A stretch of 32,000 bases of DNA, from the NCBI RefSeq assembly GCF_000284115.1, contig NC_017080.1, positions 3,300,001-3,332,000 on the forward strand, in the 5' to 3' direction. This stretch comes from Phycisphaera mikurensis NBRC 102666 (lineage in GTDB: Bacteria; Planctomycetota; Phycisphaerae; Phycisphaerales; Phycisphaeraceae). Positions 5,031 through 32,000 of the stretch are shown here, one piece after another (position 1 is the first letter of the stretch; every line of letters starts with the position of its first letter). The notes beneath the pieces were generated by a model. The model saw only the letters and a program-made list of their open reading frames with translations. It had not been told where the DNA came from and did not search any database. The position numbers and the translations under genes are program-made.

Positions 5031-6233
5031 TCAAGCTCGCGTGGGGGCCGCGGACGGCGTGGGTTCGGGCACGGAAGCGGGGTCGGTCCGCGGCGCGGCC
5101 TCGGCGTCCGGCTTGCCGCCGAGGCCCGTGAGCCGGCCGAGCTTGGCGCCGGCCTGCGTGACGATGCCGGCGATGCCGCTGGGGAACAGCAGCGTGACCG
5201 CGATGAAGATCGCCCCCATCGCGAAGTACCAGAGCGCCGGGAACTCCTCGGAGAACCAGGTGCGGGCCCAGCTGATCAGCAGCGTCCCGAAGACGGCCCC
5301 GGTGAGGCTCATCCGACCGCCCACGGCGCAGAAGATCACCATGTAGATGCTCGGCTCGATCGTCACGAGCATCGGGCTGATCATGCCGGTGTTGAGCACG
5401 AACATCGCGCCGCCGAGGGCGGAGAAGGCGGCGGCCACGCAGAAGACGAAGGTCTTGAAGCTGGCGACGTCGTAGCCGGAGAAGCGGACGCGGTCCTCGC
5501 TGTCCCGCACCGCCACCAGCAGCCGGCCGAGCTTGCTGGAGAGGATCCACCGGCCGAGCAGCACCGTGCCGAGCAGGAAGACGACGGTGGCGAAGTACAG
5601 CGTGTTCTGCGCCCCCGGCGTCCGGATGTCCCAGCCGAGCATCGTCCGCAGGTCGGTGATCCCGTTGATGCCGCCGGTCCAGCCCTGCCGCGTCACGAAG
5701 AGCAGCTGCATCAGCCAGCACAGGGCCTGGGTGATGATCGCGAAGTACACGCCGCTCACGCGGCGCTTGAACATCGCGGTGCCCAGCAGGTAGGCGAGCA
5801 GCGTGGGGACCGCGAAGACCAGCACGAGCGTGAGCGGGAAGCTCTTGAAGGGGATCCAGAACCACGGCAGCTCCGTGATCTGGTTCCAGTCCATGAAGTC
5901 CGGCAGCCCCGCGGTCGTCAGCGCGTTGATCTGGTCGGTGCCCGACTCGGCCGCGATGTTGCCGGCCGCCTCGAGCTTCAGGAAGGCCGCGAGGCAGTAG
6001 CCGCCGAGGCCCCAGAAGACTCCCTGCCCCAGGCTCAGCACGCCGCCGTAGCCCCAGCAGAGCACCAGGCCCACCGCGACGAAGGCCAGCGAGAGGTACT
6101 TCGCCGCCATGTTCAGCCGGAAGGCGTCGAGCCACAGCGGCATCGCCAGCAGCAGCAGCGCCGCCAGCGCGGCGAAGGCCACGAGCCCGGCGTTGGAGCC
6201 GAAGAATCGGAATCGGATCTCGGAAGCGTTCAA
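5031..6233 (-). CDS. urtC: Urea/short-chain-amide ABC transporter permease UrtC
   Basis: 400-aa polytopic membrane protein of the LivM/UrtC type. The low-complexity Pro/Ala tail (last ~25 aa) is encoded by palindromic element copy H. Confidence 0.88.
   Translation of the reverse strand: MNASEIRFRFFGSNAGLVAFAALAALLLLAMPLWLDAFRLNMAAKYLSLAFVAVGLVLCWGYGGVLSLGQGVFWGLGGYCLAAFLKLEAAGNIAAESGTDQINALTTAGLPDFMDWNQITELPWFWIPFKSFPLTLVLVFAVPTLLAYLLGTAMFKRRVSGVYFAIITQALCWLMQLLFVTRQGWTGGINGITDLRTMLGWDIRTPGAQNTLYFATVVFLLGTVLLGRWILSSKLGRLLVAVRDSEDRVRFSGYDVASFKTFVFCVAAAFSALGGAMFVLNTGMISPMLVTIEPSIYMVIFCAVGGRMSLTGAVFGTLLISWARTWFSEEFPALWYFAMGAIFIAVTLLFPSGIAGIVTQAGAKLGRLTGLGGKPDAEAAPRTDPASVPEPTPSAAPTRA
5048..5093. 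repeat. 46-nt palindromic element, copy H (inside the 3' end of urtC)
   Basis: ccgcggacgg at 5048-5057 (one mismatch) and cggtccgcgg at 5084-5093, with a 26-nt interior. Confidence 0.8.
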
Positions 6234-21579: not shown

Positions 21580-24399
21580 ATGGCCAAAGCCACCCCCAGA
21601 AAGAGCTTCGCCGGCAAACCCGGGTCCTCCGGCAGGAAGTCCTCCTCCCGGAAGAAGTACGCCTTCAACGTGAAGGACGCCCAGGGCCGGCACCTGGTCA
21701 TCGTCGAGAGCCCCACCAAGGCCAAGACGATCAACAAGTACCTCGGCCGCGACTACCACGTCATGGCCTCGGTCGGCCACGTCCGCGACCTGCCCAAGTC
21801 GGCGCCCAAGGGCTCCTCCAAGGAGGACCAGGTGCTGCCCGGCGTCGACCTGGCCCGCAACTTCGAGCCGACCTACGAGATCCTCCCCGACAAGAAGGAC
21901 ACGGTCAGCAACCTCCGCAAAGCCGCGAAGGTCGCCACCGACGTCTACTTCGCGACCGACCTCGACCGCGAGGGCGAAGCCATCGCCTGGCACCTGGCCG
22001 AGGCGCTGAAAGTCCCCACCGACCAGGCCAAGCGGGTGGTCTTCAACGCGATCACCAAGAGCGCTCTGGAGGAGGCCTTCGCCCGGCCCCGCGGCATCGC
22101 CATCCCCCGGGTCGACGCCCAGCAGACCCGCCGCATCCTCGATCGGATCGTCGGCTACCAGGTCTCGCCGCTGCTCTGGCGGAAGGTCGCCGGCGGGCTG
22201 TCCGCCGGCCGCGTGCAGTCGGTGGCGACGCGGCTGGTGGTGGAGCGCGAGCGGGCGATCGAGGCCTTCGTCCCCGAGGAGTTCTGGAAGCTCACCGGCT
22301 TCTTCACGCCGAAGATGGACGAGGCGAAGAAGCTCGGCGACGCGTGGAGAGACTTCCTGAAGAAGTCCGGCGAAGATGTGACCATCAAGAACCAGAACGG
22401 CTTCCTCTCCGAGAACGGCGTGCTCCGCGCCGAGCTGGACACGGTGGGGGGCAGGAAGTGGAAGACCGACGACCGCGAGCAGGCCCTCGCCCTCGCGGAG
22501 TCGCTGGGCTTCGTGCTCGACGACGCGGTGGAGACCGAGCACCCCGACGAGAAGGGCCCGGCGCAGAAACAGGTCCGCTTCCTCGGCGGCATCGGCAACG
22601 CCCCGGACTACAAGATCCAGAGCGTGGAGACCAAGCGGACCAAGCGCCGCCCGGCGCCGCCGTTCATCACCTCGACGCTGCAGCAGCGGGCCAGCAGCTA
22701 CCTGGGCTTCAACCTCAAGCGGACGATGCGCGTCGCCCAGCAGCTCTACGAGGGCATCGATCTCAAGGGCAGCCGCGGGCAGACCGGCCTCATCACGTAC
22801 ATGCGGACCGACTCGACCTTCCTCTCCGGCGAGGCCATCGGCGCCGCCCGCGGCTACATCGAGGACAAGCTCGGCAAGAACTACCGGCCCGAGGACAAGC
22901 CGCGGTTCTACAAGTCCAGCAACCAGGACGCGCAGGAGGCCCACGAGGCGATCCGCCCCACCGACGTGACGATCACGCCGAGCAGCATCCAGAACCAGCT
23001 CTCCGAGGAGCAGTTCCGCCTGTACGACCTCATCTGGCGCCGCTTCGTCGCCTGCCAGATGGTGGACGCGCAGTTCGACTCGACCTCGATCATCATCGCG
23101 TGCGAGAAAGCGGAGGCGACGTTCCGGGCCTCCGGCAGCGTGCTCGTCTTCGACGGCTTCATGCGGATCTCGGGCGTCCCGAAGTCCGACGAGGTGCTGC
23201 TGCCCAAGGGCCTGGAGGAGAACAAGCCGATCGCGCCGATCGACCTCGACCCCAGGCAGCAGTTCACCAGCCCGCCCGCCCGCTACACCGAGGCCTCGCT
23301 GCAGAAAGAGCTGGAGAAGGAAGGCATCGGCCGGCCGTCGACCTACGCCGCGATCATCGGGACGATCCAGGACCGCAAATACGTCGAGACCGTCAACGCC
23401 CGCGACAAGCGGCTGATGGCGACCGACCTGGGGAAGGTCGTCACCGACAAGCTCATCGAGGCGTTCCCGGAGATCCTCGACGTGGGCTACACGCGCGACC
23501 TGGAAGCCCAGCTCGACGACATCGAGAACGACGGCCGCGACTGGCGGAAGACGCTCGGCGACTTCTACAAGCCCTTCAAGGTCCAGCTCGACGACGCCAT
23601 GGCGAACATGACGCACGCCAAGGCCGCCACCGAGGTGAGCGACCACCTCTGCCCGACCTGCGGCTCGCCCTGCGAGTACCGGCTCGGCAAGAACGGCCGC
23701 TTCCTCTCCTGCACCGCCTTCAACGTGCCGCCGGTGGAAGTCAGGCCCGAGAAGGACCCGGTCGCTCCCGACGGCTCGCCCTGGCTGCTGCACAAGGCCA
23801 AGGGCAAGGCCCGGCCGAAGATCACCACCGCCGACGGCGAAACCAAGCTCGGCTGGACCAAGCTCAGCAAGACGGACAAGGAGCGGTTCATGAACCTCTC
23901 CGAGCAGATGCCCGAGCCCTGCAAGTACGCCTGTCCGATCGACCGCAACGGCAACCCGCAGGCGCCCGAGCTCACCGACGTGCTCTGCCCGGTCGACGGC
24001 GAGCCGATGATCCAGCGGACCGGCCGCTTCGGGCCCTTCCTGGCCAGCAGCAACTACCCCGCGGTGCAGTACATCCTCAAGCTGCACCCCAAGACCGGCG
24101 CCGTCGTCACCCCCAAGGTCGAGCCCCTCGTCACCGAGATGGTTTGCCCCAAGTGCGAGGAGCGCCCGCTGAACCTCCGCGACGGCAAGCACGGCCTGTG
24201 GCTGGGCTGCTCGGGCTTCCCCAAGTGCCGCGGCCGCGAGGGCTTCACCAAGCTGCCCGAGGAGGAGCAGGCCGACCTCACCAAGCTCTGGGAGAAGCAC
24301 GTGAAAGAGCACCCGCTGCCGGAGGTCAAAACCGCCGACGGCCGCGTGCTCCACGACGAAGACAACTACGTGCCCCAGCCGCTCGAAGCGGCCGGCTGA
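21580..24399 (+). CDS. topA: DNA topoisomerase I (type IA) with C-terminal zinc-ribbon repeats
   Basis: ATG at 21580. Toprim LVIVESPTKAKTINKYLG, DLDREGEAIAWH, active-site region ITYMRTDS and C-terminal CxxC..C ribbons (CPTCGSPCEYRLGKNGRFLSC; CPKCEERPL...GCSGFPKC). Preceded by a ~35-aa Lys/Ser/Arg-rich N-terminal extension. Confidence 0.95.
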   Translation: MAKATPRKSFAGKPGSSGRKSSSRKKYAFNVKDAQGRHLVIVESPTKAKTINKYLGRDYHVMASVGHVRDLPKSAPKGSSKEDQVLPGVDLARNFEPTYEILPDKKDTVSNLRKAAKVATDVYFATDLDREGEAIAWHLAEALKVPTDQAKRVVFNAITKSALEEAFARPRGIAIPRVDAQQTRRILDRIVGYQVSPLLWRKVAGGLSAGRVQSVATRLVVERERAIEAFVPEEFWKLTGFFTPKMDEAKKLGDAWRDFLKKSGEDVTIKNQNGFLSENGVLRAELDTVGGRKWKTDDREQALALAESLGFVLDDAVETEHPDEKGPAQKQVRFLGGIGNAPDYKIQSVETKRTKRRPAPPFITSTLQQRASSYLGFNLKRTMRVAQQLYEGIDLKGSRGQTGLITYMRTDSTFLSGEAIGAARGYIEDKLGKNYRPEDKPRFYKSSNQDAQEAHEAIRPTDVTITPSSIQNQLSEEQFRLYDLIWRRFVACQMVDAQFDSTSIIIACEKAEATFRASGSVLVFDGFMRISGVPKSDEVLLPKGLEENKPIAPIDLDPRQQFTSPPARYTEASLQKELEKEGIGRPSTYAAIIGTIQDRKYVETVNARDKRLMATDLGKVVTDKLIEAFPEILDVGYTRDLEAQLDDIENDGRDWRKTLGDFYKPFKVQLDDAMANMTHAKAATEVSDHLCPTCGSPCEYRLGKNGRFLSCTAFNVPPVEVRPEKDPVAPDGSPWLLHKAKGKARPKITTADGETKLGWTKLSKTDKERFMNLSEQMPEPCKYACPIDRNGNPQAPELTDVLCPVDGEPMIQRTGRFGPFLASSNYPAVQYILKLHPKTGAVVTPKVEPLVTEMVCPKCEERPLNLRDGKHGLWLGCSGFPKCRGREGFTKLPEEEQADLTKLWEKHVKEHPLPEVKTADGRVLHDEDNYVPQPLEAAG

Positions 24400-24408
24400 G
24401 CGTCCCCC

Positions 24409-24454
24409 CCGCGGACCGAGGCCCTCAGGCGGCTCGGAGCCCCGCGGTCCGCGG
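24409..24454. repeat. 46-nt palindromic element, copy D (topA-hsdM intergenic)
   Basis: ccgcggaccg at 24409-24418 and cggtccgcgg at 24445-24454, perfect arms and a 26-nt interior. Begins 10 nt after the topA stop. Confidence 0.85.
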
Positions 24455-24485
24455 CGCGGGCCCCGCGCTTCGGTAGCGTCCGCCG

Positions 24486-26147
24486 ATGCCCGCGACCGAA
24501 CACGCTTTCCTCCGCGAGCTCGACGCCAAGCTCTGGGCCGCCGCCGACAAGCTGCGGAACAACCTCGACGCCGCCCAGTACAAGCACGCCGTCCTGGGGC
24601 TGATCTTCCTGAAGTACGTCTCCGACGCCTTCGACGCCCGCCGCGAGCGGGTGCTCGCCGACCTGCGCGACCCGGACAGCGAGTCCTTCTACCCCGACGC
24701 CACCGAAGAGGACCTGCACGCCGAGCTGGAGGACAGAGACCACTACACCGCCGCGAACACCTTCTGGGTCCCCCCGCTGGCCCGCTGGCAGAACCTCCAG
24801 AGCTGGGCCAAGCTGCCGCCGCAGACGACCGTGGAGGTGAAGAATGGCAAGACGGAGAAGTACACGATCAAGAGCACCGCGCTGCTCATCGACGACGCCC
24901 TCGCCGCCGTCGAGCACGAGAACGAGCCGCTCAAGAACGTCCTCGCCCGCGACACCTACGCCCGCCTGCAGTTGGATCCCGCCAATCTGCGCGGCCTGAT
25001 CGACCTGGTCGCCGGCATCCCCTTCACCCACGACCGCCTGCAGGCCCGGGACATCCTCGGCCACGTGTACGAGTACTTCCTGGGCCAGTTCGCCTTGGCG
25101 GAGGGCAAGAAGGGCGGCCAGTACTTCACGCCGAAGAGCATCGTCGGCCTCATCGTCGAGATGCTGCAGCCGTACTGGGGCCGCGTCTACGACCCGGCGA
25201 TGGGCAGCGGCGGCTTCTTCGTCGAGATCGAGAAGCACGTGGAGCGGGCCTACGACGAACGCACCCACGGCGCTTCCGGGGGGATCAGCGTCTACGGGCA
25301 GGAGAGCAACCCCACCACCTGGCGGCTGGCCGCGATGAACATGGCCATCCGCGGCATCGACTTCAACTTCGGCAAGACGTGGGCGAACAGCTTCACGCAG
25401 GACCAGCACCCCGACCTGCGGGCCGACTTCGTGATGGCCAACCCGCCGTTCAACGTGAGCGACTGGTGGGACGCCAAGCTCGCCGACGACCCGCGCTGGA
25501 CGCACGGCACGCCGCCCAAGGGCAACGCGAACTTCGCCTGGGTGCAGCACATGCTCCACCACCTGGCCCCCACCGGCAGCATGGCCCTGCTGCTGGCCAA
25601 CGGCAGCATGTCCGGCACGTCCGGCGGCGAGGGCGACATCCGCCGCGCCCTCGTCGAGGCCGACCTGGTCGAGTGCATGGTCGCCCTGCCCGGCCAGCTG
25701 TTTACCAACACGCAGATCCCCGCGTGCATCTGGTTCCTCACGAAGGACAAGGCGGCGCGGAACGGCAAACGCGACCGCCGCGGCGAGGTGCTCTTTCTCG
25801 ACGCCCGCGGCGTCGGCTACATGAAGGACCGCGTGCTGCGCGACTTCACCCGTGAAGACATCCAGAAGCTCGCCGGCACCTTCCACGCCTGGCAAGGCTT
25901 GGGCGACGACGAGTACGCCGACATCCCCGGCTTCTGCAAGTCAGCGACGCTAGCCGAGATCGCCGCCCAGGGCTTCGTGCTGACTCCCGGCCGCTACGTC
26001 GGTGTCGCCGCGGCGGAGGACGACGGCGAGCCCTTCGCCGAGAAGATGGCCCGCCTGACGGCCGAGCTGAGCGGGCAGTTCGAGGAGTCCGCTGCGCTGG
26101 AGGCGAAGATCCGGCGGAACCTGGAGGGGGTGGGATATGAGGTCTGA
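24486..26147 (+). CDS. hsdM: Type I restriction-modification system, DNA methyltransferase subunit M
   Basis: HsdM N-terminal domain (LWAAADKLRNNLDAAQYKHAVLGLIFLKYVSD), AdoMet motif (VYDPAMGSGGFF) and catalytic NPPF (FVMANPPFNVSDW). Confidence 0.95.
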   Translation: MPATEHAFLRELDAKLWAAADKLRNNLDAAQYKHAVLGLIFLKYVSDAFDARRERVLADLRDPDSESFYPDATEEDLHAELEDRDHYTAANTFWVPPLARWQNLQSWAKLPPQTTVEVKNGKTEKYTIKSTALLIDDALAAVEHENEPLKNVLARDTYARLQLDPANLRGLIDLVAGIPFTHDRLQARDILGHVYEYFLGQFALAEGKKGGQYFTPKSIVGLIVEMLQPYWGRVYDPAMGSGGFFVEIEKHVERAYDERTHGASGGISVYGQESNPTTWRLAAMNMAIRGIDFNFGKTWANSFTQDQHPDLRADFVMANPPFNVSDWWDAKLADDPRWTHGTPPKGNANFAWVQHMLHHLAPTGSMALLLANGSMSGTSGGEGDIRRALVEADLVECMVALPGQLFTNTQIPACIWFLTKDKAARNGKRDRRGEVLFLDARGVGYMKDRVLRDFTREDIQKLAGTFHAWQGLGDDEYADIPGFCKSATLAEIAAQGFVLTPGRYVGVAAAEDDGEPFAEKMARLTAELSGQFEESAALEAKIRRNLEGVGYEV

Positions 26148-27498
26148 TGTGTCAGCATGGACGCCGCGGCGCCTCGCCGACTGTGCGACATGGATCTCCG
26201 GGGGTACGCCTTCAAAGAAGAATCGAGATTACTGGGACGGCGACATCCCTTGGGTATCTGCCAAAGACATGAAGTCATTCAGGCTTCACGACAGCGTGGA
26301 CCACATCACGGAGCGAGCCGTAGACGATGGAGCGAAGCTCGTTCCGCGCGACTCCATCCTGCTTCTCGTCCGCGGCATGACGTTGAACAACGACGTCCCG
26401 ATCTGCATGACGGATCGGCAGATGGCGCTCAACCAGGACCTGAAGGCGCTATTGCCTGCTGATGACGTCGACGCTCACTTCCTCGCGTACTGGCTGCTCG
26501 CGAACAAGCCCCAGCTGCTTTCTTCGGTCGAACATGCGGGACACGGCACCGGCAAGCTAGCGACGCCCGTTTTGCAATCGATGCAGATCGCTCTCCCCCC
26601 GCTCTCCGAGCAGCGGGCGATCGCGGCGGTGTTGGGGTCGCTGGATGACAAGATCGCGTTGAACCGTCGGATGAACCGGACGCTGGAATCGCTGGCCCGG
26701 GCGTGGTTCCAGAGCTGGTTCGTCGACTTCGACCCCGTCCACGCGAACGCCGCCGGCCGGCCGACCCTCCCCCCCGACCTCGCCGCCCTCTTCCCCGCCA
26801 CCTTCACCCCCTCCCCCCTCGGCGACATCCCGGAGGGCTGGGAGGTGAAGCCCGTCGGCGACATCGTCGACTGCGTCGGCGGCGGCACGCCGAGCACGAA
26901 GAACGACGACTACTGGGAGGGCGGCACGCACCACTGGGCGACGCCAAAGGACCTGTCGTCGCTCGACGCCCCGATCCTTACGACGACGAACCGGAAGCTG
27001 ACCGACGCCGGCGTCGGCAAGGTCTCGTCTGGCCTGCTGGAACGCGGCACCGTCCTCATGTCATCCCGAGCCCCCGTCGGCTACCTCGCCATCGCCGACG
27101 TGCCGGTCGCCGTCAACCAGGGCTTTATCGCCATGAAGCCGACCGATGCGATGCCGGCGTCGTTCCTGCTGAACTGGTGCCAGCACAACATGGAGACCAT
27201 CAAGAGCCAGGCCGGCGGCACGACCTTCGCCGAGATCAGCAAGAAGGCCTTCCGCCCGATCCCGATGCTCGTCCCGCCGCCCGGCGTCGCGTCCCGCTTC
27301 GCAGAAATCGTCGGCCCGATGTACGCCCGAATTACGCTGAACGTCCGCGAGAGCGAGACGCTCGCCGCCCTCCGTGACGCCCTGCTGCCTCGCTTGCTCT
27401 CCGGCGAGCTGCCCGCACCCGCGGACCGTGACGATCTTCCGCCCGTGGAGCCCACGGTCCGCGGCAACCCCGGCCGGTCGCCGGTGGCCCCCGCCTGA
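26137..27498 (+). CDS. hsdS: Type I restriction-modification system, specificity subunit S
   Basis: Two target-recognition domains separated by conserved helices (LSEQRAIAAVLGSLDDKIALNRRMNRTLESLARAWFQSWFVDFDPV; C-terminal ETLAALRDALLPRLLSGEL). Overlaps hsdM by 11 nt. The 27-aa tail after SGEL is encoded by palindromic copy G. Confidence 0.92.
   Translation: MRSDVSAWTPRRLADCATWISGGTPSKKNRDYWDGDIPWVSAKDMKSFRLHDSVDHITERAVDDGAKLVPRDSILLLVRGMTLNNDVPICMTDRQMALNQDLKALLPADDVDAHFLAYWLLANKPQLLSSVEHAGHGTGKLATPVLQSMQIALPPLSEQRAIAAVLGSLDDKIALNRRMNRTLESLARAWFQSWFVDFDPVHANAAGRPTLPPDLAALFPATFTPSPLGDIPEGWEVKPVGDIVDCVGGGTPSTKNDDYWEGGTHHWATPKDLSSLDAPILTTTNRKLTDAGVGKVSSGLLERGTVLMSSRAPVGYLAIADVPVAVNQGFIAMKPTDAMPASFLLNWCQHNMETIKSQAGGTTFAEISKKAFRPIPMLVPPPGVASRFAEIVGPMYARITLNVRESETLAALRDALLPRLLSGELPAPADRDDLPPVEPTVRGNPGRSPVAPA
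27419..27464. repeat. 46-nt palindromic element, copy G (inside the 3' end of hsdS, just upstream of darT)
   Basis: ccgcggaccg at 27419-27428 and cggtccgcgg at 27455-27464. The stem extends to 12 bp (..tg/ca..), with a 26-nt interior between the 10-bp arms. Confidence 0.85.
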
Positions 27499-28139
27499 TG
27501 GCCGCCTATTCCGCCGAGCGCGCGCAGATCTTTCGGTTGACCCACCGGGACAACCTGCCGTGGATCCTGGAGCACGGGCTGCACTGCCCGACAAGCGACA
27601 CGCTGGACCCCGGCTTCGTCGCAATCGGGCGGGAGGAGATCATCGACCGCCGCACCCGCCACGAGGTTTCGTGCGGGCCCGGCGGGGTGCTCGCGGACTA
27701 CGTGCCGTTCTACTTCACCCCGCGGTCGATCATGGCGTTCAACATCCGCACCGGGTTCCACGGGCTGACGCAGCGTGACAACGACGACCTCGTGGTGCTG
27801 GTGTCGTCCATCCCCCGCCTGCTGGAGATGTCCATCGGCTTCGTGTTCTACAGCGGGCAAGCGATGCTGCACGAGAGCACCTGCCACGCCGACGCCGCGG
27901 ACCTGACGAAGATCGACTGGGCCCTGCTCAACGCGGCCGACTTCCGCAACGATCCGGAGGACCCGGGGAAGAAGGGGCGGTACCAGGCGGAGGCGCTGGT
28001 CCACCGCCACACGCCGGTGGAGGCCTTGCTCGGCGTCGGGTGCTACAGTCCGAAGGTGGCGCACGAGGTGGATCTCCTCGTGCAGCGAAGCGGCAGGGAT
28101 CTCGCCGTCAAGCCCGCGCCGAAGCTGTTTTTCCGATGA
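27498..28139 (+). CDS. darT: DarT, ssDNA thymidine ADP-ribosyltransferase toxin (DUF4433 family)
   Basis: 213 aa. IFRLTHRDNLPWILEHGL, GGVLADYVPFYFTPRSIMAF and GRYQAEALVHRHTPVEALLGVGCYS parallel the conserved DarT blocks as I remember them from Thermus DarT, including the catalytic Glu in QAE.LV. The ATG shares one base with the hsdS stop (TGATG). Confidence 0.85.
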   Translation: MAAYSAERAQIFRLTHRDNLPWILEHGLHCPTSDTLDPGFVAIGREEIIDRRTRHEVSCGPGGVLADYVPFYFTPRSIMAFNIRTGFHGLTQRDNDDLVVLVSSIPRLLEMSIGFVFYSGQAMLHESTCHADAADLTKIDWALLNAADFRNDPEDPGKKGRYQAEALVHRHTPVEALLGVGCYSPKVAHEVDLLVQRSGRDLAVKPAPKLFFR

Positions 28140-29200
28140 TCCACGCCACGGATGGCAATCTCCTTGAAGCGGACGCGGAAGCGCTCGTGAACACGGTCAA
28201 CACCGTGGGCGTGATGGGCAAGGGCATCGCCCTGATGTTCAAGGAACGCTTCCCGGAGAACTTCCGGCGCTACGCCGCCGCCTGCAAGCGGGAGGAGGTC
28301 CAGACCGGGCGCGTCTTCGCGGTGGCCAACGAGGAGCTGGCCGGGCCACACTGGATCTACAACTTCCCGACGAAGCGGCACTGGCGGTCGCCCTCCCGGC
28401 TGGAGTGGATCGACGAGGGCCTCGCCGACCTGGCGTGGCTGCTGCGCGAGCACAGGGTCGCCTCGGTCGCGGTCCCGCCCCTTGGGGCCGGCAACGGCGG
28501 GCTGAAGTGGGCGGACGTCCGGCCGCTGGTGGAGCGACACCTCGGCAGCCTGCCCGGGGTCGACGTGCTGCTGTACGAGCCGACGCAGGCGTACCAGAAC
28601 GTCTCGAAGACGACCGGCAAGGAGCGGCTCACGCTGGCGCGGGCGCTGGTCGCGGAGATGGTCCGCCGCTACGGGGTGCTCGGGCTGGACTGCTCGATCC
28701 TCGAGATCCAGAAGCTCGCTTGGGTGCTGCAGCGTCAGATCCGGCAGTTGGGCTTGGATGACCCGTTGGAGCTTGACTTCAAGGCCAACCGCTACGGCCC
28801 CTATTCCGACCGCCTCCGTCACCTCCTCGACGCCCTCGACGGGAGCTGGCTGCGGAGCGAGAAGCGGCTTGCCGATGCCGAACCCCCGGACACGATCCGC
28901 TTCGCGCCCGGTCGGGAGCGAAAGCTCGGCGAGTGGTTCGGTGCGGGGCAAGGCTTCCACTACCGAGAAGCCGTGGAGGCGACCGACGCCTTGATCGATG
29001 GCTTCCAGTCGCCGCTGGGCCTGGAGGCGCTCGCCACGGTGGGGTGGCTCCTCGACGAGGAAGGGGTGGAGCCGAGCCTCGCGGCGGTGCGTGAGGGCAT
29101 CGCTCGCTGGCCTGCGGGGCCCGCCGCGGCCGAGCGGAAGGCGGGGCTGTTCGGCGATCACCTGCTCGAGGCCGCCATCCGGCGGTACACGCACCCGTGA
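28136..29200 (+). CDS. darG: DarG, macrodomain DNA ADP-ribosyl glycohydrolase antitoxin
   Basis: ATG at 28136 overlaps the darT stop (ATGA). N-terminal macrodomain (DAEALVNTVNTVGVMGKGIALMFKERFP; IYNFPTKRHWRSPS) plus a ~200-aa C-terminal domain, the DarG architecture. Confidence 0.85.
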   Translation: MIHATDGNLLEADAEALVNTVNTVGVMGKGIALMFKERFPENFRRYAAACKREEVQTGRVFAVANEELAGPHWIYNFPTKRHWRSPSRLEWIDEGLADLAWLLREHRVASVAVPPLGAGNGGLKWADVRPLVERHLGSLPGVDVLLYEPTQAYQNVSKTTGKERLTLARALVAEMVRRYGVLGLDCSILEIQKLAWVLQRQIRQLGLDDPLELDFKANRYGPYSDRLRHLLDALDGSWLRSEKRLADAEPPDTIRFAPGRERKLGEWFGAGQGFHYREAVEATDALIDGFQSPLGLEALATVGWLLDEEGVEPSLAAVREGIARWPAGPAAAERKAGLFGDHLLEAAIRRYTHP

Positions 29201-29211
29201 GCGAGAACCCG

Positions 29212-29257
29212 CCGCGGACCGTGCGTGGCTGCGGCCGTTGCGGCCGGTGGTCTGCGG
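29212..29257. repeat. 46-nt palindromic element, copy E (darG-hsdR intergenic)
   Basis: ccgcggaccg at 29212-29221 and tggtctgcgg at 29248-29257. Both right-arm substitutions still allow G-U pairs in a plus-strand RNA. 26-nt interior. Confidence 0.75.
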
Positions 29258-29288
29258 GGGTGCGAGGGCTCCCGCAGCAGGAGAACGA

Positions 29289-32000
29289 GTGATCAACGAG
29301 GACGCCGTCGAGCAGAAGGCTCTTCGCTGGTTCCAGGACACCGGCTGGGCGTACCTCCACGGGTCGGAGCTGGCCCCGGACGTGGCGCCCGAGCAGCGGG
29401 CGGACGGAAAGGCGGTGGTGCTGGCCGGGCGGCTGGCGGAGGCGGTGCGGCGGCTGAACCCGCAGCTGCCGGCCGAGGCGGTGGAGGAGGTGGTGCGGGC
29501 GGCAACGCAGCGGGAGCACCCGGACCTCGCCCGGGCCAACGCGGCGTTCCACCGGAGGATGATCGACGGGGTGCCCGTCCGCTTCGAGGATCCTTCCACC
29601 GGCGAGAAGGTCCAGGACGTGGCCCGGCTGGTGGACTTCGGCGGAGCCGCGAACAACGACTGGCTGGTGGTGAACCAGCTGGCGATCGCGGGAACCAAGG
29701 ACGGGCGGCGGCCGGACGTAATCGCCTATCTCAATGGCCTGCCGATCGCGGTGATCGAGCTGAAGAACCCGGCGGACGAAAAGGCCGACGTGTGGGCGGC
29801 GTACCGGCAGCTGCAGACCTACAAGGACGAGATCGGCGAGCTGTTCGTCCGCAACGCGGCGCTGGTGGTGAGCGACGGGATCACGGCGCGGGTCGGGTCG
29901 CTGACGGCGAGCCCCGAGTGGTTCCTGCCGTGGCGGGCGGTGAGCGGCGAGGCGGACCAGCCCAAGGTGGAGATGGAGCTGGAGCGGGTCGTCCGCGGGT
30001 TCTTCCGGCCGGACCTCCTGCTGGACTACCTGCGGCACTTCATCCTGTTCGAGGGCGAAGAAGACGTCGTGAAGAAGATCGCTGGATACCACCAGTTCCA
30101 CGGGGTGCGGGCGGCGGTGGAGGCGACGGTGGTCGCCGCGGACCGCGGCGTGGAAACGGCTCCGGGCGACGCGGTCCGCGAGCGGCCGGCGGCGGACTGG
30201 GGGCGGCGGGTGCCGCGGGGCAGCGGGAAGGCGGGCGTCTTCTGGCACACGCAGGGCTCGGGCAAAAGCATTTCCATGGCCATGTACGCGGGCAAGCTGA
30301 TGCAGCAGCCGGCGATGAACAACCCGACCCTGGTGGTGGTCACCGACCGCCTTGACCTCGACGGGCAGCTGTTCGCGCAGTTCGCGGCGGCGAAGTCGCT
30401 GCTGGGCGAGAAGCCCGACCAGGCGGAGAGCCGGGAGCAGCTGCGCGACTACCTCGACGGCCGGGCCAGCGGCGGGATCGTGTTCACGACGGTGCAAAAG
30501 TTCGCGCCGCTGGACGGGGAGGAGGCGCACCCGGTGCTGAGCGGGCGGAGCAACGTCGTCGTGATCAGCGACGAGGCGCACCGCAGCCAGTACGGGATCA
30601 AGCCGACGCTGGACAGGAAGACCGGGCGGTACGTCTACGGCTACGCCAAGCACCTCCGCGATGCCCTTTCGGGGGCGTCGTTCATCGGGTTCACGGGGAC
30701 GCCGATCAGCAGCGAGGACCGCGACACCCGCGGCGTGTTCGGCGAGTACGTGAGCGTCTACGACATCGCCGACGCCGTGGAGGACGGGGCGACGGTGCAG
30801 ATCTACTACGAGAGCCGGCGGGCGAAGCTGGACCTGAACGACGCGGAGATCGAGACGCTCAACCAACAGGTGGACGAGGTCGTCGAGGACGAGGAGACCG
30901 AGGACCGGGAGCGGACCAAGGGCCACTGGGCGCAGCTGGCGAAGCTGGTGGGGGCGCGGCCGCGGCTGGAGGCGATCGCGGACGACCTGCTGGCGCACTT
31001 CGACCAGCGGAAGGAGGCGATGGCGTCGCAGGTCGGGCCCGACGGCGGGAAGGCGATGATCGTCACGATGAGCCGGGACATCTGCGTCGCGCTCTTCGAC
31101 GAGATCGTCCGCCGGCGGCCGGAGATGGCGGGCAGCCGGAAGGACGACGGCACGTGGAACCCCGAGGACGGGTCGATCCGCGTGGTGATGACCGGCACGG
31201 CGACCGATCGGGTTGAGCTGCGGCACCACCAGCACGGCAAGGCCCAGCGCGAGCGGCTGGCCAAGCGGTTCAAGGACCCGGCCGACCCGCTGGAGCTGGT
31301 GATCGTGCGGGACATGTGGCTGACCGGCTTCGACGCGCCGTGCTGCCACACGATGTATGTGGACAAGCCGATGCGGGGGCATGCGCTGATGCAGGCGATC
31401 GCCCGGGTGAACCGGGTGTTCCGCGAGAAGGCGGGCGGGCTGGTGGTCGACTACATCGGGATCGCCAACGAGCTGAAGCAGGCGCTCAAGACGTACACGG
31501 AGAGCAAGGGGCGTGGCCAGCCGACGGTGCGGGCGGAGGACGGGCTTCGCATCCTGAAGGAGAAGGTGGGCGTTCTGCGGGACATGATGCGGGAGAACGG
31601 CGGCTTCGCGTACGCGGGCTTCGAGACGCAGCCGTTGGAGCTGCTGCCGGGGGTGACGAACCACCTCCTCGGGCTCGACGACGGCAAGCGGCGCTTCCTG
31701 GACGTGATGGCCTCGGTGCTGAAGGCGTTCAGCCTGTGCGCCACGCTGGACGAGGCGGCGGCGCTGCGGACGGAGATCGCGTTCTTCTCGGCCGTCCGCG
31801 GCGTGCTCGCCAAGCACGGGCAGGAAGAGCCGAAGCGTGGCGGCGCGGACAAGAGCGCATCGCTCAAGCTGATCCTGGACAACGCGGTGGTGAGCGAGGG
31901 CGTGGACGACATCTTCGCGATGGCGGGGCTGGAGCGGCCGGACATCGGGCTGCTGAGCGAGGGGTTCCTCGAGGACGTGCGGCGGATGCCGGCGAAGAAC
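29289..32000 (+). CDS. hsdR: Type I restriction-modification system, endonuclease/translocase subunit R (3' end outside the window)
   Basis: The frame is open from GTG 29289 (AGGAG 5 nt upstream) to the window end, so it is absent from the ORF track. My hand translation gives VINEDAVEQKALRWFQDTGWAYL..., a nuclease-domain-like segment (PDVIAYLNGLPIAVIELK) and helicase motifs (WHTQGSGKS, VVISDEAHRSQ, FIGFTGTP, MWLTGFDAP). Confidence 0.93.
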   Translation, partial: MINEDAVEQKALRWFQDTGWAYLHGSELAPDVAPEQRADGKAVVLAGRLAEAVRRLNPQLPAEAVEEVVRAATQREHPDLARANAAFHRRMIDGVPVRFEDPSTGEKVQDVARLVDFGGAANNDWLVVNQLAIAGTKDGRRPDVIAYLNGLPIAVIELKNPADEKADVWAAYRQLQTYKDEIGELFVRNAALVVSDGITARVGSLTASPEWFLPWRAVSGEADQPKVEMELERVVRGFFRPDLLLDYLRHFILFEGEEDVVKKIAGYHQFHGVRAAVEATVVAADRGVETAPGDAVRERPAADWGRRVPRGSGKAGVFWHTQGSGKSISMAMYAGKLMQQPAMNNPTLVVVTDRLDLDGQLFAQFAAAKSLLGEKPDQAESREQLRDYLDGRASGGIVFTTVQKFAPLDGEEAHPVLSGRSNVVVISDEAHRSQYGIKPTLDRKTGRYVYGYAKHLRDALSGASFIGFTGTPISSEDRDTRGVFGEYVSVYDIADAVEDGATVQIYYESRRAKLDLNDAEIETLNQQVDEVVEDEETEDRERTKGHWAQLAKLVGARPRLEAIADDLLAHFDQRKEAMASQVGPDGGKAMIVTMSRDICVALFDEIVRRRPEMAGSRKDDGTWNPEDGSIRVVMTGTATDRVELRHHQHGKAQRERLAKRFKDPADPLELVIVRDMWLTGFDAPCCHTMYVDKPMRGHALMQAIARVNRVFREKAGGLVVDYIGIANELKQALKTYTESKGRGQPTVRAEDGLRILKEKVGVLRDMMRENGGFAYAGFETQPLELLPGVTNHLLGLDDGKRRFLDVMASVLKAFSLCATLDEAAALRTEIAFFSAVRGVLAKHGQEEPKRGGADKSASLKLILDNAVVSEGVDDIFAMAGLERPDIGLLSEGFLEDVRRMPAKN
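30136..30181. repeat. 46-nt palindromic element, copy I (in frame inside hsdR)
   Basis: ccgcggaccg at 30136-30145 and cggtccgcga at 30172-30181 (one terminal mismatch), with a 26-nt interior. Encodes AADRGVETAPGDAVRE just upstream of the Walker A motif. Confidence 0.8.

Follow-up and report, generated by a model that had tools for sequence, protein, structure and literature searches.

In a 32,000-nucleotide (nt) stretch of the chromosome of Phycisphaera mikurensis NBRC 102666 (NC_017080.1, positions 3,300,001 to 3,332,000; called the window below, with coordinates counted from its first letter) the genes darT and darG lie between hsdS and hsdR of a restriction-modification operon and are flanked on both sides by a 46-nt palindrome. 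We regard it as highly probable that this locus is a Type I hsdM-hsdS...hsdR operon with a DarTG2-type pair in a variable slot and, jointly with this, that the palindromes are ordinary members of a repeat family and not recombination junctions. An original prediction, made from the letters of the window, had proposed that the palindromes mark the junctions at which darTG was inserted into, or can be exchanged out of, an hsdMS-hsdR operon. Its view of darTG as an exchangeable insert held up, since seven other cargos occupy the same place in related operons and the same DarTG subtype occurs in another Type I family, but the role given to the palindromes did not: no related operon has them, nor does the spacer of a closely related DarTG locus (contig L090), and they sit at roughly 15% of the gene junctions of the host, including those of housekeeping genes. 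The host palindrome as a cassette boundary for defence genes is an attractive idea that is thus not upheld, and what was found is an ordinary outcome of two things already known; a high local density of copies is its one, modest, peculiarity.

All genes of the operon are on the plus strand. The gene hsdM (24486–26147) encodes a Type I methyltransferase (Pfam N6_Mtase, 2.7e-107, and HsdM_N; PADLOC MTase_I, 6e-175), hsdS (26137–27498) a specificity subunit of 453 amino acids (aa; Pfam Methylase_S, 8.2e-42; PADLOC Specificity_I) and hsdR (29289 to past the window end at 32000) a Type I restriction subunit (Pfam HSDR_N, SWI2_SNF2, T1R_D3-like and T1RH-like_C; PADLOC REase_I, 4.5e-281), which is 1071 aa long in the full genome and has its best named homologues in Planctomycetota and Phycisphaerales. 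HsdM, HsdS and HsdR are all matched by Pfam and PADLOC and co-oriented in one locus, which identifies it as a restriction-modification system of Type I. Between hsdS and hsdR follow darT (27498–28139), encoding a toxin of the single-stranded DNA ADP-ribosyltransferase type (Pfam DarT, 3.6e-56 over the full profile; PADLOC DarT, 3.5e-56; PDB 7omv, 1.2e-20), and darG (28136–29200), encoding a macrodomain antitoxin with a C-terminal DarT-binding region (Pfam Macro, 2.6e-20; PADLOC DarG, 6.3e-114), the darT stop and darG start overlapping as ATGA. DarG residues 3–151 match PDB 5m31 (7e-55) and residues 187–327 match 7yk3_B (2.5e-12). In the alignment with Thermus DarT (7omv), QAEALV of our protein stands opposite QAAFLV of the chain, which presumably carries an E160A substitution, and the Glu at the catalytic position is retained in our protein. 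Judged by domain content, the catalytic Glu and the adjacent macrodomain DarG, darT-darG is a DarTG toxin-antitoxin pair, whose toxicity, neutralisation and phage defence are predicted.

The variable slot becomes visible in seven related operons, all from outside the genus, in which the place of darTG is taken by other genes (whole-protein HsdR identity in brackets): DUF4365 and a gene for 385 aa in L082 (83%), a gene for 250 aa in L083 (81%), DUF4747 and a gene for 164 aa in L087 (80%), DarT and Macro in L086 (79%), SIR2_2 in L084 (78%), Abi_C, DUF4365 and a gene for 373 aa in L088 (73%) and a gene for 436 aa in L089 (71%). HsdM is 75–85% identical to that of the window in the six relatives having hsdM (L083–L089), and the target-recognition domains of HsdS are diverged, with 33–40% identity. 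The DarT of L086 has no detectable BLASTP similarity to the DarT of the window and its DarG is only 39% identical, showing that two different DarTG subtypes entered one slot. The locus gives a clear example, from a planctomycete, of a cargo slot between hsdS and hsdR: methylase and nuclease are 71–85% identical among operons with eight different cargos, and two of these cargos are DarTG pairs of unrelated subtypes. The comparison of related hsd junctions, which had been suggested along with the original prediction, gives differing cargo and yet the palindrome in none of the seven operons (L082–L084, L086–L089). Cargo exchange would most likely proceed through the conserved flanking coding sequence, by recombination in hsdM and the 3' part of hsdS on one side and the 5' part of hsdR on the other, and the palindrome copies would have no role in mobility.

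The relatives of the DarTG pair itself lead to the same picture. DarG proteins with 66–68% identity are found between hsdS and hsdR in L091, L093 and L094, where HsdR carries EcoEI_R_C and belongs to a different Type I family, and one related DarTG pair stands alone, in Mucisphaera; no flanking motif common to the loci of the same DarTG subtype was found. Among more distant DarT loci darTG is followed by hsdR in 17 of 80. No DarT was detected in 40 genomes representing other genera of the family and order of P. mikurensis, and in a 400-genome sample of the class just 10 have one, with at most 53% identity.

In the RRDM defence island of enteropathogenic E. coli E2348/69 the DarTG2 pair lies inside a restriction-modification system of Type I between hsdS and hsdR, other gene pairs were seen in that slot and the site was termed a potential recombination hotspot (PMC12255303); the cargo architecture and the hotspot idea are thus already published. 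Our locus shares with this island the gene order hsdM-hsdS-darT-darG-hsdR and a DarT of the thymidine-type family, the best solved relative being Thermus DarT. It differs from the island by its host phylum (Planctomycetota), its Type I subfamily and the host-specific palindrome copies at the junctions, and neither the RptR repressor nor the M48 peptidase was seen beside the operon, although no search was aimed at either. Another defence gene in this position is that of the anticodon nuclease PrrC, which sits between hsdS and hsdR in EcoprrI and is likewise co-oriented with them. There the cargo differs from ours, for which we find eight cargos, window included, among operons with HsdR 71–83% identical.

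Nine copies of the palindrome, which follows the pattern CCGCGG ACCG-N26-CGGT CCGCGG, are present in the window, starting at 2712, 5048, 7316, 11787, 21372, 24409, 27419, 29212 and 30136. As had been predicted, darTG is bracketed by copy G (27419–27464, CCGCGGACCGTGACGATCTTCCGCCCGTGGAGCCCACGGTCCGCGG, both 10-nt arms exact) and copy E (29212–29257, left arm exact, right arm TGGTCTGCGG), while a third copy, D (24409–24454, both arms exact), lies upstream of hsdM, 9 nt past the topA stop and 31 nt ahead of the hsdM ATG, and a fourth, I (30136–30181, one mismatch), lies inside hsdR, where it encodes residues 283–298 (AADRGVETAPGDAVRE). Some of the predicted distances had to be corrected by one: 33 nt and not 34 lie between copy G and the darT ATG, 11 nt and not 12 between the darG stop and copy E, and the HsdS tail beyond ...LLSGEL comprises 28 codons and not 27. 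With two mismatches in its right arm, copy E is a degenerate member of the family. As CCGCGG is self-complementary, the ends of the element double as 6-nt direct repeats.

The junctions of the related operons are tightly packed. After the conserved ...LLxGE[LI] helix their HsdS tails have 9–16 residues in all seven cases, the first cargo gene abuts or overlaps the hsdS stop in six of seven, the exception being L083 with a gap of 479 nt, and at the other end the last cargo gene adjoins the hsdR start or runs into it in all seven. By this layout homology with the window ends just past the HsdS helix and resumes at the hsdR start codon, and copies G and E are inside the variable segment, G 7 nt past the left homology break and E 31 nt before the right one. 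Judged from these alignments, both copies are extra DNA compared with the relatives. The overlap between cargo and hsdR amounts to 8 nt in L083, L086, L087 and L089, whose hsdR genes all start with ATGATTAAC, with TAA at bases 6–8 of that string, and to 4 nt in L084.

At the left junction the hsdS frame indeed runs through copy G, as had been claimed, up to a TGA (27496–27498) whose A is shared with the darT ATG (TGATG). The resulting C-terminal tail (PAPADRDDLPPVEPTVRGNPGRSPVAPA, 27412–27495) lies beyond all HsdS profiles, those of PADLOC Specificity_I stopping at residues 425–432, and it is 12–19 residues longer than the tails of the relatives, which are too variable for alignment; this greater length fits a gain of 16 codons. 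Copy G would thus lengthen an unconstrained HsdS tail in frame, and it is read in the commonest coding phase of the family (..ADR...VRG..). Since the stop-start overlap of hsdS and darT is kept, translational coupling of darT to hsdS can probably persist.

At the right junction copy E lies in the 88-nt spacer between darG and hsdR (29201–29288), where the relatives have overlapping genes. The spacer also contains a second, small hairpin read from the sequence (CTGCGGG-N12-CCCGCAG, 29252–29277, plus strand), which overlaps the right arm of copy E and is followed on its 3' side by GGAG, 5 nt ahead of the hsdR GTG. A counterpart is offered by L090, a contig of 1304 nt with 80.2% DNA identity over the darT 3' end and darG (DarG 84% identical), in which a spacer of 52 nt separates darG from the start of an hsdR of the same family (MITEDLVEQQ). 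Both spacers start alike (TGAGCGGGAGCCGCGGGGG... in L090 and TGAGCGAGAACCCGCCGCGG... in the window) and share the downstream small hairpin, and L090 is without about 40 nt that equal the element minus one CCGCGG. Trial deletions of 34–46 nt align best at exactly this position of the spacer, with a small margin (28–29 vs 23 undeleted). The comparison speaks for about 40 additional nt in the window, which would either have been gained where a CCGCGG stood or have been lost precisely from L090. Since the L090 spacer lacks the element, the adjacency of darTG and hsdR exists without the palindrome.

Copy I has a similar setting within a protein. It fills the first half of an HsdR loop of about 25 residues (about 283–310; 30130–30220) just N-terminal of the GKS nucleotide-binding motif, which is found in the window protein and in the homologues P0009, P0010 and P0016 and is missing from the closest homologues P0002–P0008. 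The right arm of copy I encodes AVRE, which aligns with AIRE or ILRE of the loop-bearing homologues (...AGAIRE-GRATW...), and from this alignment the copy seems to have arisen by construction within the existing sequence of a variable loop.

In order to see whether the bracket around darTG is special we turned to the whole genome, which consists of a 3.80-Mb chromosome and an 81-kb plasmid with 73% GC. All gene-based statistics were obtained with our own rough gene caller (2925 genes, 85% coverage). A copy is present at 15.5%, or about one in six, of the 2877 junctions between the genes so called. Blocks bracketed by copies were seen 25 times for one gene, 44 times for two genes and 61 times for three genes, compared with 69, 59 and 50 expected under independence. 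The 44 other two-gene blocks are therefore fewer than expected, and bracketing shows no specificity for accessory genes; genes flanked by copies have a normal GC content at third codon positions (GC3) and no foreign composition, although the rough caller may miss atypical genes. Within the window itself copies stand on both sides of the housekeeping gene topA (21372 and 24409) and of two ABC-permease genes (7316 and 5048). Indiscriminate flanking of genes throughout the genome had been named together with the original prediction as an observation that would speak against it, and this is largely what we find. That two copies bracket darTG is accounted for by the preference of the family for gene ends together with a high density of copies in this part of the genome. 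Of the two permease genes, which belong to an ABC transporter of the urea/branched-chain type, the second ends, within 5031–5100 on the minus strand, in a low-complexity tail (...AAPRTDPASVPEPTPSAAPTRA*) that is encoded by the copy at 5048–5093 and is a direct analogue of the HsdS tail.

With these numbers the idea of palindromes as cassette boundaries, that is recombination sites for insertion or exchange of darTG in a loosely attC-like manner, becomes very improbable. It would agree with the short distances of copies G and E from the homology breakpoints (7 nt on the left, 31 nt on the right) and with a copy density in the top 1.4–4% of windows, and the 6-nt direct-repeat ends could in principle give a precise deletion, the L090 spacer resembling an empty site with a single CCGCGG. 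However, seven related operons as well as another Type I family have exchanged cargo in this slot without any palindrome, loci of the same DarTG subtype have no flanking motif in common, and gene pairs (44 others) and single genes (25) are bracketed less often than independence predicts, housekeeping genes among them. Boundaries of duplicated segments coincide with a copy edge in only 3 of 1248 cases in the whole genome. No integrase gene is nearby: the window contains no tyrosine recombinase (PF00589), and the nearest one is at G000:C1:3361353, about 29 kb past the window end. In seven alignments with a related marine organism, described below, the copies are found in place, which speaks for stable sites and not for mobile junctions.

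The comparison with integrons deserves a closer look, as the element and attC sites have in common an imperfect palindrome, conserved ends, a variable centre and a location at the ends of accessory genes. While attC sites are of variable length, the element is fixed at 46 nt; moreover, an integron requires one attC per cassette and an adjacent integron integrase, whereas the closest tyrosine recombinase here is the distant one mentioned above and the elements also flank housekeeping genes and lie within genes. An integron gene cassette was accordingly ruled out by the missing PF00589 in the window and by copies at 15.5% of all junctions.

Some observations weigh against seeing ordinary family members in these palindromes. 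Copies are denser at the locus than in most of the genome: four or more fall into 1.4% of windows of 5.8 kb (4.1% for windows of 7.6 kb), so that at 5.8 kb it belongs to the top 1.4% and pure coincidence is an imperfect fit; nevertheless the locus was chosen post hoc and its copy density is only mildly unusual. Copies G and E are 7–31 nt from the homology breaks, as the original prediction expected, for which the gene boundaries account equally. In addition, the genome-wide statistics depend on a rough gene caller (2925 genes, 85% coverage), and the comparison set contains no operon that both bears the repeat family and differs in cargo.

The family is a lineage-wide 46-base-pair (bp) element with 10-bp inverted arms, a strict 26-bp spacer, a free interior and a preference for gene ends. 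In the whole genome CCGCGGACCG-N26-CGGTCCGCGG is found 477 times with both arms exact, a count that rises to 680 when one mismatch per arm is allowed; other spacers of 10–44 nt give at most 9 exact-arm matches each, and with up to two mismatches per arm there are 846 matches compared with 26–78 for control patterns. The family numbers about 680–770 copies. The arms are conserved to 89–100%, and the interiors are unique in 678 of 680 copies. Of the 680 copies 380 are intergenic, 46 lie over a gene end and 254 within genes according to the rough caller, so 56% fall into intergenic DNA, which makes up about 15% of the sequence, and about 37% into called genes, where they show a strong phase preference. 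Genome-wide, genes have 38 copies within their final codons and a further 44 across their stop regions, and about 80 copies are translated as C-terminal tails. On the chromosome both short spacings (104 below 2 kb vs 204 expected from a Poisson distribution) and long gaps (13 above 15 kb vs 46 expected) are in deficit, the median being 4.8 kb, and the distribution is therefore more even than random. The plasmid G000:C2 (81 kb) carries three copies, corresponding to 0.37 per 10 kb compared with 1.8 on the chromosome, or one fifth; two of these three are 459 nt apart.

Outside this genome the exact element is absent from the 40 genomes of other genera of the family and order of P. mikurensis. 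It does occur in metagenomes, on 53 contigs of which a single marine assembly supplies most; none of these contigs overlaps the hsd locus. Seven of these (L111, L112, L123, L125, L144, L152 and L158) give single-copy orthologous alignments spanning a copy, from a related marine organism with 74–88% DNA identity, in which the copy stands at the orthologous place with intact arms, almost no indels and a diverged interior. As arms and spacing were kept while the interiors drifted between species, arms and spacing are under selection across species and something reads these sites. A long hairpin as the structure of the element was rejected: the interiors of the 680 copies show no covariation in fixed register, and the whole element folds barely better than with shuffled interiors (−29.7 vs −28.6 kcal/mol), the interior alone being no different. 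Interior positions 17–20 and 27–30 are A/T-permissive, two patches 10 bp apart that often read GTTTC and then GAAAC, and TTTC or GAAA is present in 30% of the interiors vs 3% of random 26-mers. The pattern has the look of a double-stranded DNA site with bending or contact positions in phase, and not of a hairpin loop. A miniature inverted-repeat transposable element was ruled out by the unique interiors together with the lack of a clear direct duplication of the flanks (k=2, 103 vs 85 expected; no excess for k=3 and k=4). With its conserved arms, exact spacing and even distribution the repeat family is a more interesting object than the bracket, and it illustrates how a host-wide repeat reshapes gene ends, in our case by a longer protein tail and a spacer opened in a compact operon.

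The copies in the operon might also have a local function in cis and divide it into three units (hsdMS, darTG and hsdR), acting as hairpins in the mRNA, like REP stabilisers or attenuators, or as binding sites of the protein that reads the family, with their enrichment being adaptive. We consider this unlikely. Copies D, G and E do stand 31–33 nt ahead of the starts of hsdM, darT and hsdR, and D and E 9–11 nt past stop codons; arms and spacing are conserved between species while the interiors drift, the local copy density is unusually high, and the 88-nt spacer with its hairpin and GGAG precedes hsdR where the genes of the relatives overlap. On the other hand copy E is degenerate, a simple scan of 24300–30400 found no promoter- or terminator-like sites near the copies, and like placements occur at many unrelated operons, so that any function would be generic to the family and not specific for darTG. 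The more specific version, in which a chromosomal factor reads the 46-bp sites, the local density is adaptive and the copies punctuate the operon as DNA sites or mRNA hairpins, is in our view rather improbable too. If it were true, methylase, toxin-antitoxin pair and nuclease would be expressed semi-independently, whereas those of the relatives are translationally fused end to end.

There is also little reason to believe that darTG moved in from elsewhere in the lineage and carried the palindromes along as its own flanks, even if both copies are within the variable segment and outside the conserved hsd flanks. In L090 the same DarTG subtype stands beside an hsdR of the same family, and the homologous spacer between them is free of the element; DarTG homologues in other contexts are without such flanks. 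No second darT was found in the genome, and the GC3 of darT and darG (0.91–0.93) is host-like (topA, 0.97), which indicates a pair that has long been resident and did not arrive recently. We therefore keep to ordinary family members next to an exchangeable cargo as the preferred explanation.

The element also resembles REP/REPIN sequences, which are likewise palindromic, present in high copy number, preferentially located at gene ends or between genes and occasionally read through into gene tails. Unlike in these, conservation is limited here to the 10-nt arms and the spacing of 26 nt, and almost every interior is unique, about 37% of the copies lie within called genes, and their spacing on the chromosome is more even than random. 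Regarding a RAYT partner, two Y1_Tnp genes are present in the genome and neither is flanked by the 46-bp element within the usual distance. One Y1-transposase (RAYT-like) gene, at G000:C1:3005349-3006644 (L105) outside the window, has inverted copies of a different repeat (GGTGACAGCCACCGATT...) on both sides, so that a further REP-like family, unrelated to the 46-bp element, is present along with its candidate cognate transposase. The densest cluster of the 46-bp element is found at G000:C1:1338477-1356572, with 13 copies in 18 kb and 11 of them within 7.6 kb. These copies are apparently set in a longer repeat unit recurring 1562 nt apart, and the metagenome contigs L110 and L127 match this cluster many times.

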